Shown here: positions 10 to 11,090 of the stretch, in pieces
How the letters are laid out: every line of letters starts with the position of its first letter
Position numbering within the stretch: position 1 is the first letter of the stretch
Source: a virus
Lineage: Duplodnaviria; Heunggongvirae; Uroviricota; Caudoviricetes
Virus record (IMG/VR): IMGVR_UViG_2526164634_000018
DNA length: 14,574 nucleotides
Direction: 5' to 3' (one strand)
Notes under the pieces: model-generated
What the model saw: the letters and a program-made list of their open reading frames with translations, nothing else
What the model was told of the DNA's origin: nothing
Databases searched by the model: none
Made by a program: the position numbers and the translations under genes

Positions 10-33
10 GTAACCGGCTCATTTAAACCGTCT
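10..33. repeat. IS66-family left terminal inverted repeat (copy 1)
   Basis: Begins GTAACCG and shares CATTTAAACCGTCT with the copy 2 left end (11066..11090 reverse complement); imperfect match to the right end. Confidence 0.6.
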
Positions 34-92
34 GGTCTGTTTCCTCCGGCTCTACAAAAATAATGTCCATCATTTTTAATGGACACTATCGT

Positions 93-740
93 ATGAAACA
101 CCGGACCTGGATCACTGAAGCTTTACGTCTTCACTTTGAAGAACATTTACCCCGGGTTGTGGCCGGGCGTCGCCTGGGTGTACCAAAATCAACAGTTTGT
201 AATATGTTCGTGCGCTTTCGGAGAGCTGGCCTTTCGTGGCCTTTGCCCGCAGGCATGTCGGAGCAGGAACTTGATGCCTGCCTTTACGGACAATTTTCCA
301 CGGTACCAGTCGTACGTCCTGAAAACACCGTTATATCCGAAGCCCCCGTGATAAAAAAACGTCCCCGGCGGCCCAACTTCCCTTATGAGTTTAAAATCGC
401 CTTAGTGGAGCAGTCACTGCAGCCCGGAGCCTGTGTGGCGCAGATCGCCCGGGAAAACGGAATCAACGATAACCTGCTCTTCAACTGGCGCCATCAATAC
501 CGGAAAGGTGGCCTGCTGCCTTCCGGAAAAAATATGCCGGTACTGCTTCCCGTGACGTTAACGCCGGAGCCGGATAATAAAATCCCGGCCCCCGCACAGG
601 AACCAGAGCAGATAAATACACCGTCCGACAGTCTGTGTTGTGAGCTGATTCTGCCGGCCGGAACTCTCAGGCTTAAAGGTAAACTGACGCCGGCGTTATT
701 ACAGACACTTATCCGCGAAATGAAAGGGAGCAGCCACTGA
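93..740 (+). CDS. IS66-family orfA-like protein: N-terminal HTH module fused in frame to the canonical IS66 TnpA region
   Basis: Six-frame ORF 63..740; the ATG at 93 (MKHRTW...) aligns with the start of the copy 2 homologue, so 93 is the likelier start. C-terminal part (PRRPNFPYEFK...LQPGACVAQIARENGINDNLLFNWRHQYRKG) is the IS66 TnpA HTH region. Stop TGA 738..740 overlaps the orfB ATG (ATGA coupling). Confidence 0.75.
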   Translation: MKHRTWITEALRLHFEEHLPRVVAGRRLGVPKSTVCNMFVRFRRAGLSWPLPAGMSEQELDACLYGQFSTVPVVRPENTVISEAPVIKKRPRRPNFPYEFKIALVEQSLQPGACVAQIARENGINDNLLFNWRHQYRKGGLLPSGKNMPVLLPVTLTPEPDNKIPAPAQEPEQINTPSDSLCCELILPAGTLRLKGKLTPALLQTLIREMKGSSH

Positions 741-1087
741 TGATATCTCTCCCTGCCGGTTCGCGTATCTGGCTGGTTGCCGGTATCACCGATATGCGAA
801 ATGGTTTTAACGGCCTGGCATCAAAAGTTCAGAACGTCCTGAAGGATGACCCGTTCTCCGGACACCTGTTCATCTTCCGCGGACGCCGGGGTGACCAGAT
901 AAAAGTGTTGTGGGCTGACAGTGACGGACTGTGCCTCTTCACCAAACGCCTGGAGCGGGGCCGCTTCGTCTGGCCAGTCACCCGTGACGGCAAGGTGCAC
1001 CTTACTCCGGCTCAGTTATCCATGCTTCTTGAAGGTATCAACTGGAAGCACCCGAAACGAACGGAACGCGCTGGAATCCGCATATAA
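740..1087 (+). CDS. tnpB: IS66-family accessory protein TnpB (orfB), intact 115 aa
   Basis: ORF MISLPAGSRIWLVAGITDMRNGFNGLASKV...; typical IS66 orfB size and position between orfA and the large transposase; start overlaps the orfA stop. Confidence 0.9.
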   Translation: MISLPAGSRIWLVAGITDMRNGFNGLASKVQNVLKDDPFSGHLFIFRGRRGDQIKVLWADSDGLCLFTKRLERGRFVWPVTRDGKVHLTPAQLSMLLEGINWKHPKRTERAGIRI

Positions 1088-1106
1088 CCCGTTGTAAAGT
1101 GAGGAT

Positions 1107-2677
1107 ATGGACACCTCACTTGCTCATGAGAACGCCCGCCTGCGGGCACTGTTGCAGACGCAACAGGACACCATACGCCAGATGGCGAATACAACCGCCT
1201 GCTCTCACAGCGGGTGGCGGCTTATGCCTCCGAAATCAACCGGCTGAAGGCGCTGGTTGCGAAACTGCAGCGCATGCAGTTCGGTAAAAGCTCAGAAAAA
1301 CTTCGCGCTAAAACCGAACGGCAGATACAGGAAGCACAGGAGCGAATCAGCGCACTTCAGGAAGAAATGGCGGAAACGCTGGGTGAGCAATATGACCCGG
1401 TACTGCCATCCGCCCTGCGCCAGTCTTCAGCCCGTAAACCGTTACCGGCCTCACTTCCCCGTGAAACCCGGGTTATCCGGCCGGAAGAGGAATGCTGTCC
1501 TGCCTGTGGTGGTGAACTCAGTTCTCTGGGATGTGATGTGTCAGAGCAACTGGAGCTTATCAGCAGCGCCTTTAAGGTTATCGAAACACAACGTCCGAAA
1601 CTGGCCTGTTGCCGGTGCGACCATATCGTGCAGGCACCGGTGCCTTCAAAACCCATTGCACGCAGTTATGCCGGAGCGGGGCTCCTGGCCCATGTCGTCA
1701 CCGGAAAATATGCAGACCATCTGCCGTTATACCGCCAGTCAGAGATATACCGCCGTCAGGGTGTGGAGCTGAGCCGTGCCACGCTGGGGCGCTGGACTGG
1801 TGCCGTTGCTGAACTGCTGGAGCCGCTGTATGACGTCCTGCGCCAGTATGTGCTGATGCCCGGTAAAGTCCATGCTGATGATATCCCCGTCCCGGTCCAG
1901 GAGCCGGGCAGCGGTAAAACCCGGACAGCCCGGCTGTGGGTCTACGTCCGTGATGACCGTAACGCCGGTTCACAGATGCCCCCGGCGGTCTGGTTCGCGT
2001 ACAGTCCGGACCGGAAAGGTATCCATCCACAAAATCACCTGGCCGGTTACAGCGGTGTGCTTCAGGCCGATGCTTACGGTGGTTACCGGGCGTTATACGA
2101 ATCCGGCAGAATAACGGAAGCCGCGTGTATGGCTCATGCCCGGAGAAAAATCCACGATGTGCATGCAAGAGCGCCCACCGACATCACCACGGAAGCCCTG
2201 CAGCGTATCGGTGAACTGTATGCCATCGAGGCAGAGGTCCGGGGCTGTTCAGCAGAACAGCGTCTGGCGGCAAGAAAAACCAGAGCCGCGCCACTGATGC
2301 AGTCACTGTATGACTGGATACAGCAACAGATGAAAACACTGTCGCGTCACTCAGATACGGCAAAAGCGTTCGCATACCTGCTGAAACAGTGGGATGCACT
2401 GAACGTGTACTGCAGTAATGGCTGGGTGGAAATCGACAACAACATCGCAGAGAACGCCTTACGGGGAGTGGCCGTAGGCCGGAAAAACTGGATGTTCGCG
2501 GGTTCCGACAGCGGTGGTGAACATGCGGCGGTGTTGTACTCGCTGATCGGCACATGCCGTCTGAACAATGTGGAGCCAGAAAAGTGGCTGCGCTACGTCA
2601 TTGAACATATCCAGGATTGGCCGGCAAACCGGGTACGCGATCTGTTGCCCTGGAAAGTTGATCTGAGCTCTCAGTAA
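1107..2677 (+). pseudogene. tnpC: IS66-family transposase (orfC), disrupted by a 1-bp frameshift near 1188
   Basis: ATG at 1107 with GAGG upstream; the frame ([28 protein letters not shown]...) hits a stop after ~46 codons, and the remainder resumes in another frame as ORF 1214..2677 (487 aa). Copy 2 (8417..9988) is intact at 523 aa; copy 1 reads GCGAATACAACC where copy 2 reads GCGAAATACAACC. Confidence 0.85.
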
Positions 2678-9988: not shown

Positions 9989-10007
9989 ATCCTCACTTTA
10001 CAACGGG

Positions 10008-10356
10008 TTATATGCGGATGCCAGCGCGTTCCGTTCGTTTCGGGTGCTTCCAGTCGATGCCTTCGAGAAGCATGGACAACTGAGCCGGAGTAAGGTGAAC
10101 CTTTCCATCGCGGGTGACCGGCCAGACGAAGCGGCCCCGCTCCAGGCGTTTGGTGAAGAGGCACAGTCCGTCACTGTCAGCCCACAGCACTTTTTATCTG
10201 GTCACCCCGGCGTCCGCGGAAGATGAACAGATGCCCGGAGAACGGGTCATCCTTCAGGACGTTCTGAACTTTTGAGGCCAGGCCGTTAAAGCCATTTCGC
10301 ATATCGGTGATACCGGCAACCAGCCAGATACGCGAACCGGCAGGGAGAGATATCAT
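10008..10356 (-). pseudogene. tnpB: IS66-family TnpB (orfB) with a 1-bp insertion frameshift at 10191..10195
   Basis: Minus strand reads MISLPAGSRIWLVAGITDMRNGFNGLASKVQNVLKDDPFSGHLFIFRGRRGDQIKSAVG*; the rest (LWADSDGLCLFTKRLERGRFVWP...) resumes in another frame as the 60-aa ORF 10008..10190. Copy 2 has ATAAAAAG where copy 1 has ATAAAAG. Confidence 0.85.
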
Positions 10357-11005
10357 CAGTGGCTGCTCCCTTTCATTTCGCGGATAAGTGTCTGTAATAA
10401 CGCCGGTGTCAGTTCACCTTTCAGCCTGAGAGTTCCGGCCGGCAGAACCAGCTCGCAGCACAGACTGTCTGGCAGTGTATTTATCTGTTCAGGTATCTGC
10501 ACTGGTGCCGGGATTTTATATCCGGCTCCGGTGTTAACGTCACGGGAAGTAGCGATGTTTCATGTTCGCCGGGTCGTTGCAGGCCACCGTTACGCCAGAG
10601 ATGCCGCCAAGTTAAAGAGCAGGTTATCGTTAATTCCATTCTCTCGAGCTATTTGTGCGACACAGGCACCGGGTAAAAGAGTTTGCTGAACCAGTCTCCA
10701 TTTAAACTCCGGTGAAAATCGGTTCCGGCGGGGTTTCTCTGCTTTCACAGGCTGAGTCACGGTCGGGGCTGAAGGGTATCGCCCCGGGAAAGAGCCCGGG
10801 CCAGTTGCCCGCAGGAATATTCACCGGAAAGAGGCCAGTCAGTGAATACCTGGTGAAATCGCCTCACCAGAGAAAAAATGGCGGTTTTGCTGACACCAGT
10901 CTGCGCAGAAATGCGCGGGTACGACAGTGACTCGTCAAATCTCAGCTGTAGCACACGCAGGATCAATTCTGGATTATCTGCCAGTACCGCTTTTCGTGCA
11001 TTCAT
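10356..11005 (-). pseudogene. Degenerate IS66-family orfA region: 82-aa N-terminal HTH ORF (10757..11005) followed by TnpA-homologous sequence in at least two other frames
   Basis: ORF MNARKAVLADNPELILRVLQLRFDESLSYPRISAQTGVSKTAIFSLVRRF... is homologous (~35% identity by eye) to the copy 1 orfA N-terminus. Downstream, KPRRNRFSPEFKWRLVQQTLLPGACVAQIARENGINDNLLFN and TWRH...LLPVTLTPEPD appear in different frames separated by stops, against one continuous 225-aa frame in copy 1. Confidence 0.7.
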
Positions 11006-11065
11006 CTTAAATGTCCTTTTACTGCGAAAATGGACATTAGTATCGGAAACAGGAAAGGGAGGCGA

Positions 11066-11090
11066 AAGACGGTTTAAATGATGCGCTTAC
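11066..11090. repeat. IS66-family left terminal inverted repeat (copy 2)
   Basis: Reverse complement reads GTAAGCGCATCATTTAAACCGTCTT, beginning GTAAGCG like the right end. Confidence 0.7.

Follow-up and report, generated by a model that had tools for sequence, protein, structure and literature searches.

An inverted pair of different IS66-family elements, ISCro1-type and IS679, in the tail module of a defective lambda-like prophage of Escherichia coli

The stretch of DNA analysed here (the window; 14,574 nt, IMG/VR record IMGVR_UViG_2526164634_000018, a virus of the Caudoviricetes) corresponds over its whole length to one complete draft contig, AIHD01000054.1 (assembly GCA_000250275.2), read in reverse. 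Its host is E. coli of the O111 enteropathogenic (EPEC) lineage that includes strain B171, and the part of a defective, lambda-like prophage that the window contains is the tail end, i.e. the 3' end of the tape-measure gene and M, L, K, I, J, lom and stf, together with two insertion sequences (ISs) of the IS66 family in inverted orientation, one at the end of the tail-fibre gene, stf, and one within the tail tip gene, J. Our analyses reveal that this structure is real but ordinary and already known, being composed of two known IS66-family elements that inserted independently in a defective prophage. Both IS66-family insertions in the prophages of attaching-and-effacing E. coli and the role of IS pairs as recombination substrates are well known, and the arrangement carries little biological weight. 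All genome-wide counts given below refer to 5,426 complete E. coli genomes; draft assemblies with the junction between IS679 and J were located via exact-protein look-ups of the open reading frames (ORFs) at the junction.

Anatomy and identity of the two elements

The two elements and their genes are as follows.

10-2707, + strand: ISCro1-type IS66-family element (element 1), 2,698 bp here and 2,699 bp when intact
63-740, + strand: tnpA of element 1, 225 aa, intact; HTH_Tnp_1 (Pfam) and NF038385, IS66-like accessory protein TnpA, 292 bits
740-1087, + strand: tnpB of element 1, 115 aa, intact; PF05717 TnpB_IS66 and NF033819
1107-2677, + strand: tnpC of element 1, with a frameshift by a 1-nt deletion at 1186/1187; DDE_Tnp_IS66 and NF033517
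8387-11090, - strand: IS679, IS66 family (element 2), 2,704 bp
8417-9988, - strand: tnpC of IS679, 523 aa, intact; Pfam and NCBIfam matches
10008-10356, - strand: tnpB of IS679, with a frameshift by an added A at 10195 (AAAA to AAAAA); gene-called as fragments
10356-11005, - strand: tnpA of IS679, with three indels (loss of T at 10792, gain of T at 10610, loss of A at 10520) and substitutions at 10575, 10574 and 10532

Both elements have the layout of the IS66 family, with the gene order tnpA, tnpB, tnpC and with tnpC encoding a DDE transposase (PF03050 / NF033517). The Pfam families DDE_Tnp_IS66, zf-IS66, LZ_Tnp_IS66, TnpB_IS66 and HTH_Tnp_1 were matched in both, and the NCBIfam models NF033517, NF033819 and NF038385 scored above their curated cut-offs in both, with tnpA and tnpB of element 2 being recognisable only as fragments or through an intact reference copy. 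Imperfect terminal inverted repeats of the IS66 type (about 20-30 bp, starting GTAAGCG) are likewise present in both. Element 1 begins with GTAACCGGCTC... and ends with ...GAGCCGCTTAC, its right end reading GTAAGCGGCTC... inwards, and the terminal repeats of element 2 are GTAAGCGCATC... and GTAAGCGGCTC...; in the repeat pair of each element, 16-17 of the first 22 positions match.

The boundaries given for the two elements in an earlier note on this DNA proved to be exact, as did its statement that the orfC (i.e. tnpC) ends face the segment of 5.7 kb between them, which we find to span 5,679 bp (2708-8386) and to contain stf, lom and codons 38-1159 of J. A repeat search located inverted arms at 1188-2707 and 8387-9906 (1,520 nt, 97%), with additional arms pushing the inverted match out to 423 and 10673, and the gapped alignment of element 1 with the reverse complement of element 2 that the note had proposed gave 95.1% identity over 2,279 nt. 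In the coordinates of element 1, identity to element 2 is about 75-82% over 423-540, 93.5% over 577-900, 95.5% over 901-1187 and 96.7% over the 1,520 bp of 1188-2707. The first ~420 bp of the two elements are unrelated, with no alignable sequence to the left of 423 except the terminal repeat of ~24 bp. An inverted repeat of such length and similarity cannot arise by chance; it is because the elements share near-identical tnpB, tnpC and right ends that a 2.3-kb inverted repeat brackets stf, lom and the larger part of J (J'). The existence of an inverted pair of IS66-family elements is therefore confirmed by the repeat search, by the gapped alignment and by the Pfam and NCBIfam families.

The two elements had been described as copy 1 and copy 2 of one element, a view that does not hold, as the similarity does not span the whole element. 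On comparison with annotated copies in other genomes, element 1 is assigned to the ISCro1 type and element 2 to IS679, i.e. to two IS species. ISCro1-type and IS679 elements differ at 94 fixed positions downstream of position 577; their proteins are 59% (TnpA), 99% (TnpB) and 97% (TnpC) identical, with TnpA being 225 aa long in the ISCro1 type and 216 aa in IS679. The right ends of the two types are identical over 40 bp, and the left ends match at 20/24 positions.

Element 2 is IS679-type at 94/94 of the diagnostic sites and is 99.7% identical, across its full 2,704 bp, to the IS679 copies of strain FDAARGOS_1059, the identification being judged against these annotated copies. The alignment with annotated IS679 of that strain covers 2,702 nt, with 3 mismatches and 4 single-base indels, and the last 1,808 nt of element 2 are identical to it. 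Its TnpC (100%) is the exact protein annotated as 'IS679 family transposase', which is present at at least 8 chromosomal loci of FDAARGOS_1059. IS679 is said to have been first described on plasmid pB171 of EPEC strain B171. Element 2 resembles IS679 in its length of 2,704 bp, in the order tnpA-tnpB-tnpC, in its 8-bp target duplication and in its GTAAGCG... ends, and the same insertion occurs in strain B171 itself; its only differences, located in tnpA and tnpB, are 4 single-base indels and 3 substitutions, all private to this contig and probably errors. The reference for IS679 is Han et al. 2001, J Bacteriol 183:4296, as listed in PMC6778807.

FDAARGOS_1059, strain 12A and B171 each have an orthologue of element 1 at the corresponding site of the prophage, labelled 'ISCro1 family' in RefSeq. 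Relative to the FDAARGOS_1059 and B171 orthologues, element 1 is identical over 10-1186 and then has 10 substitutions and one 1-nt deletion. The name ISCro1 for element 1 rests solely on the RefSeq label 'IS66-like element ISCro1 family transposase' of the orthologous TnpC. A TnpA scan of species-representative genomes, which yielded chiefly IS66 relatives of Pantoea stewartii, did not settle the name, with C. rodentium being absent from the best 80 loci of the scan. ISCro1 itself has expanded in Citrobacter rodentium ICC168, where it is present in 24 copies (PMC3072379). Element 1 has the same three-gene layout and an intact length of 2,699 bp, the likeness being drawn via the RefSeq label; it differs, as present in the contig, in having no target duplication and a frameshifted tnpC. 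A 2,699-bp sequence labelled as part of a Clostridiales metagenome-assembled genome (SFGJ01000083.1, L033) consists of exactly one ISCro1-type element, with a TnpA 97% identical, and is probably an enterobacterial sequence that was mis-binned.

Frameshifts and the mosaic in tnpC of element 1

As deposited, element 1 has intact tnpA and tnpB and a broken tnpC, and element 2 has an intact tnpC and broken tnpB and tnpA, as the earlier note had read them. From these ORF states it had proposed that the lesions are complementary, that the pair encodes one complete set of IS66 proteins and that trans-complementation is conceivable. The lesions as read are five in number, at 1186/1187 (tnpC of element 1) and, in element 2, at 10195 (tnpB) and at 10520, 10610 and 10792 (tnpA). 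Orthologous insertions in sister assemblies cover four of these, and in each case the lesion is absent (4/4). The ISCro1 element at this locus in B171 has intact ORFs of 225, 115 and 523 aa, with one substitution relative to the FDAARGOS_1059 copy. The B171 contig AAJX02000139, which contains the orthologue of the IS679 insertion in J and covers window positions 12664-10214 (2,450 nt), matches the window at every position but those of the three tnpA indels and three substitutions, at which its sequence is that of canonical IS679; the canonical state is also seen in AIHB01000036 at 10792, the one tnpA lesion site that it covers. For the remaining lesion, at 10195, to which the B171 contig does not extend, the comparison was with canonical IS679 copies, none of which has it.

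None of the thousands of IS66-family copies in the complete genomes shares the lesions, and a natural defective subfamily of IS679 or ISCro1 that does so was rejected, there being none among the 5,426 genomes. A 467-aa TnpC fragment present in other DEC assemblies and in a Logan contig was considered as a possible shared frameshift and likewise rejected, as its DNA differs synonymously and keeps the T at 1186.

The window contains seven private 1-nt indels (1186, 3375, 10195, 10520, 10610, 10792 and 12966), and in six of these a run of one to four identical bases has gained or lost a base. Multi-copy DNA, comprising both ISs and the tail-fibre region that has paralogues, accounts for 46% of the window and for six of the seven indels (binomial P about 0.04). 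Over 5,977 bp of single-copy DNA (3984-8386 and 11091-12664), the window and B171 differ by 0 substitutions and 0 indels, and within element 2 the 4 indels and 3 substitutions are confined to 598 bp, the remaining 2,106 bp being canonical. AIHD01000082, from the same assembly, differs over 6,338 bp from the closed genome FDAARGOS_1059 by 0 substitutions and 4 homopolymer-length indels (T4 to T3, A3 to A4, C4 to C3 and A7 to A6). An excess of indels over substitutions, located in homopolymers and repeats, is a signature of consensus error and not of the mutation spectrum of E. coli.

Because the four lesions covered by orthologues are absent there and indels are in excess over single-copy substitutions, the apparently complementary lesions are probably artefacts. 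The five frameshifts are most likely draft-assembly consensus errors of the homopolymer-indel type, concentrated in multi-copy DNA, and both elements are probably intact in the real genome. The proposal of one complete protein set divided between the two elements is thus not upheld, the B171 orthologues being intact or canonical at the lesion sites; the outcome that the earlier note had set against its own proposal, namely that the frameshifts are errors and the copies intact, is what the comparisons indicate, as closely as can be tested from assemblies alone. Frameshifts in multi-copy ISs of draft contigs from the short-read era should not be taken as biology until they have been checked against orthologous copies or reads.

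Some points weigh against the lesions being errors. The analysis was made on assemblies, so that the error status of the lesions is inferred and not shown, and the sequencing platform is presumably that of the 454-era DEC collection. The deletion at 1186 lies outside a homopolymer if the ISCro1 base (T) was present. The T4-to-T3 change at 10792 recurs in the IS679 copies of AIHD01000082.1 (L019) and UGEB01000001.1 (L017, an unrelated NCTC assembly); it could be a recurrent homopolymer miscall or a genuine slippage-prone polymorphism, the assemblies being from different platforms. In addition, the IS679-ward substitutions in tnpC of element 1 (9/10) are given as readily by gene conversion as by a consensus of mixed reads.

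These substitutions make element 1 a mosaic. Nine of the ten positions at which its tnpC differs from the B171 and FDAARGOS_1059 orthologue carry the IS679 base (1270, 1273, 1306, 1309, 1783, 1816, 1827, 2617 and 2695), and the 1-nt deletion at 1186 falls on a diagnostic site just upstream of the first IS679-type patch; no reciprocal change is present in element 2 at any of the 94 diagnostic sites. IS679 copies may have produced the mosaic by gene conversion, or reads of the more numerous IS679 may have been mixed with those of element 1 in the consensus. Conversion of short tnpC tracts of element 1 by IS679 copies, with the frameshift at 1186 arising at a tract edge, would account for the direction of the changes, for their arrangement in patches (1270-1309, 1783, 1816-1827, 2617 and 2695), for the position of the deletion on a diagnostic site preceding the first patch and for the lack of reciprocity, which fits conversion rather than crossing-over. 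A mixed-read consensus of two IS types would, however, yield the same picture, with the greater number of IS679 copies in the relative explaining its one-way direction; moreover, some patches are single sites with unconverted sites within 6-15 bp, which is short for conversion tracts, and B171, the closest relative, has none of the IS679-type patches. We consider conversion with a frameshift at the tract edge to be unlikely.

It is distinctly unlikely that the lesions are real and that both elements are freshly decayed and mobile only with proteins supplied in trans, either by each other or by other copies. The deposited sequence does carry the lesions, two assemblies together contain three IS679 copies with the T4-to-T3 lesion, and decay of IS copies does occur, as does mutation by slippage in homopolymers; with TnpB 99% and TnpC 97% identical and the right ends identical over 40 bp, cross-supply of TnpB and TnpC is also conceivable. 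Real lesions would nevertheless require the cluster of changes within 598 bp of element 2 to have accumulated while none arose in the rest of that element or in the single-copy DNA since the split from B171, and the seven private indels against zero single-copy substitutions are the reverse of the usual E. coli mutation spectrum. The canonical orthologues in B171 and AIHB01000036, and the homopolymer-only differences elsewhere in the same assembly, also argue against real lesions. Furthermore, with TnpA just 59% identical, the 'complete set' would be made up of proteins from both IS species, and copies with an identical TnpC are plentiful in the close relative FDAARGOS_1059. As that strain carries at least 8 such IS679 copies, complementation would not be confined to the pair even if the lesions were real, and the many copies with an identical transposase make complementary lesions inconsequential.

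That the indels and patches are real together, with two IS66-family species 5.7 kb apart exchanging short tracts by gene conversion, is in our view very unlikely. If true, conversion between diverged repeats would make hybrid, frameshifted elements in place, and the window would provide a snapshot of IS families blending and decaying within prophages.

Insertion history and recombination

The sequences at the element ends, together with the two parts of J, are as follows.

2-9, no strand: left flank of element 1, TGTTCATG, one copy of the 8-bp ISCro1 target duplication found in relatives
8379-8386, no strand: target-site duplication CTTCAACC on the side of the right inverted repeat (IRR) of IS679, read from the sequence
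11091-11098, no strand: target-site duplication CTTCAACC on the side of the left inverted repeat (IRL) of IS679, read from the sequence
5008-8386, - strand: J' (tail tip protein J, codon 38 to stop), with seven J-domain Pfam families
11091-11199, - strand: first 37 codons of J (MGKGSSKGHTPREARDNLKSTQLLSVIDAISEGPVEG), by translation

A perfect target duplication of 8 bp, CTTCAACC, flanks IS679, as is characteristic of the IS66 family, and J reads ...SEGPVEG up to the IS and VEGPVDG... after it; IS679 in J is therefore a simple insertion into codon 37. The ISCro1 element of B171 and FDAARGOS_1059 lies between two copies of TGTTCATG, the insertion site being delimited by the stop codon of a 437-aa tail-fibre gene on one side and by codon 2 of the following gene on the other. 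Element 1 of the window has TATTTTCG as its right flank and hence no target duplication in the contig.

The comparison with related genomes that the earlier note had called for separates the two insertions. The canonical junction of ISCro1 with stf is present in 82/5,426 complete E. coli genomes, and the junction of IS679 with J in 0/5,426, as judged with the whole window and three junction queries; the 41-aa product of the IS679/J junction was found in 7 draft assemblies, including two contigs of B171. In FDAARGOS_1059 and the O111:H2 strain 12A, J is intact and IS679 lies instead in K, in direct orientation relative to ISCro1 (FDAARGOS_1059, L001 15959-18662; 12A, L016 about 13865-16569), with an 8-bp duplication corresponding to window positions 12822-12829. 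Sister lineages have thus been hit independently by IS679 in the same tail module. From the distribution of the junctions and the flanks among genomes, it follows that the two insertions are independent, the ISCro1 insertion being old and shared and the IS679 insertions later, with IS679 in J confined to the B171 clade; the anatomy, identities, target duplications and genome distribution on which this history draws are direct observations. By this account, the tail-fibre gene was hit first, at its end, by an ISCro1-type element, an old event shared by many genomes; IS679 followed later, in the B171 clade, entering codon 37 of J in the reverse orientation and producing the 8-bp duplication.

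Although the inverted elements, with their left ends outward, have the geometry of a composite transposon, an origin as such a transposon, or in a single event (e.g. intramolecular transposition) in which stf-lom-J' changed place or orientation as one block, is ruled out for practical purposes by the flank sequences, as the outer flanks differ (TGTTCATG versus CTTCAACC) and IS679 has its own matching duplication, and is further contradicted by the two elements being different IS species, by the occurrence of each insertion without the other in further genomes, and by the native lambda order of the enclosed genes with J reading across the insertion.

The earlier note had also proposed that the inverted repeats are a substrate for homologous recombination that would invert the enclosed segment, and that no such inversion has happened in this sequence. 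The first proposal is supported: the shared 1.5-2.3 kb may serve as a substrate, which a divergence of 3-5% would weaken. Perfect identity between the elements extends over 245, 128 and 115 bp in the three longest runs, and 12 runs reach at least 50 bp; such lengths exceed the minimal length for RecA-dependent recombination, and a divergence of 3-5% should reduce the rate where mismatch repair works. Judged from the alignment, the pair is accordingly best regarded as a possible but weakened substrate for RecA-dependent inversion.

The second proposal is borne out. That no inversion has occurred is concluded from CTTCAACC being unexchanged on both sides of IS679; in addition, J is continuous across the insertion and B171 has the same lambda-collinear connectivity. 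Only this orientation is found in the window and in the B171 contig AAJX02000044, the other five assemblies being broken at the IS. An inversion would be without obvious consequence because the prophage is already dead, with J and stf both interrupted. The target-duplication test thus provides a quick answer as to whether an IS pair has recombined.

The same test reveals exchanged flanks at other IS66-family pairs of this lineage. FDAARGOS_1059 has two inverted IS679 copies 12.2 kb apart (about 707196-709899 and 722104-724807; L010 and L011), the 8-bp flanks of which are exchanged, reading GTTAATCT/GAATAATC and GAATAATC/GTTAATCT; the corresponding IS679 copy in AIHD01000082.1 (1389-4092, L019) has GTTAATCT on both sides. 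The exchanged flanks are the signature of inversion by recombination between the IS679 copies. In strain CFSAN018748 (L002 17717-23688), a 574-bp fragment of an S49 head-protease gene lies, inverted with respect to the remainder of that gene, between two ISCro1 copies of opposite orientation. The 8-bp flanks of these copies have changed places in reverse-complement form (AAATCAGC/CTTGAACC and GCTGATTT/GGTTCAAG), a pattern that indicates an inversion mediated by the ISs within the head module of a prophage. In this lineage, pairs of IS66-family elements do therefore bring about inversions.

In Agrobacterium, experiments have shown that a 270-kb deletion on pAt15955 was caused by recombination between two IS66 copies in direct orientation (PMC6778807). 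That case and the window are alike in having long, near-identical IS66-family repeats on one replicon, and the same target-duplication logic applies to both; they differ in that the window pairs two distinct IS species that diverge by 3-5% in their common portion and have undergone no exchange.

The tail-fibre junction and the prophage genes

The other prophage features of the window are as follows.

2708-2870, - strand: 162 bp from a tail-fibre C-terminal gene of the paralogue type, abutting the IS end; the junction is private to the contig
2877-4189, - strand: gene for the N-terminal domain of the tail fibre (stf), with a frameshift at 3375/3376 (CCC to CC); a mosaic of paralogues, with phage_tail_N and PHROG tail-fibre families
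4341-4940, - strand: lom (Ail/Lom outer-membrane protein), 199 aa; PF06316, E = 5.8e-126
11266-14574, - strand: upstream tail genes, all open, from gene calls with Pfam families and a PHROG match, comprising the following six
11266-11604, - strand: 112-aa ORF, the sole match of which is phrog_914 (function label: unknown function)
11678-12253, - strand: I, open
12217-12960, - strand: K, open
12965-13663, - strand: L, open
13663-13992, - strand: M, open
to 14574, - strand: 3' end of the tape-measure gene, open

The right junction of element 1 in the window is unusual. B171 and FDAARGOS_1059 lack the segment 2708-2870, with the IS joined directly to sequence that starts at window position 2871, and window positions 2715-2900 are 98.9% identical to a paralogous prophage of strain 12A. 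The first 15 bp beside the IS, from 2708, are a degenerate, T-rich version of the paralogue; past 2870 there is an uninterrupted 'empty site' (...TAGTATATTCATGTCATTC...), followed by tail-fibre sequence that switches between paralogue types. The junction at 2708 is present in 0/5,426 complete genomes, and its 64-aa product is known just in AIHD01000054.1. Over 2708-3983 the tail-fibre gene switches among at least three paralogue types, with the CCC-to-CC frameshift at 3375, and no collinear match to a donor locus was found for this region, which is a patchwork of at least two paralogue types. The junction at 2708 may be either a mis-join via paralogous prophage sequence or a real recombinant. 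The inverted arrangement of the two elements is independent of it because the B171 contig AAJX02000044 independently has the same order, i.e. IS679(IRR)-J'-lom-stf-ISCro1-stf-C-hyaAB.

The stf N-terminal-domain gene is intact, at 437 aa, in B171 and FDAARGOS_1059, and window positions 3984-8386, which span J', are 100% identical to B171. In FDAARGOS_1059, the prophage adjoins a serine tRNA gene, with pseudogenes of the effectors EspV and TccP2 (espV and tccP2) and hyaAB alongside (L001 3135-5612). Because tccP2, espV and hyaAB adjoin the prophage in that strain, its neighbourhood places the window prophage in an attaching-and-effacing E. coli background.

IS-riddled, defective lambdoid prophages are familiar from enterohaemorrhagic (EHEC) and EPEC genomes, including those of O157, O26, O111 and O103. 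The window resembles these in its IS-interrupted module of tail genes and in its mosaic tail-fibre genes, which are common to co-resident prophages, as well as in the effector genes tccP2 and espV near the prophage in FDAARGOS_1059; we see no notable difference.

Lambda has no gene between I and J. In the window, the 112-aa ORF sits between these two genes in a stretch of low GC content (44-45%), and a 38-nt imperfect palindrome overlaps its 3' end (11266-11329). The ORF looks like a moron-type insertion.

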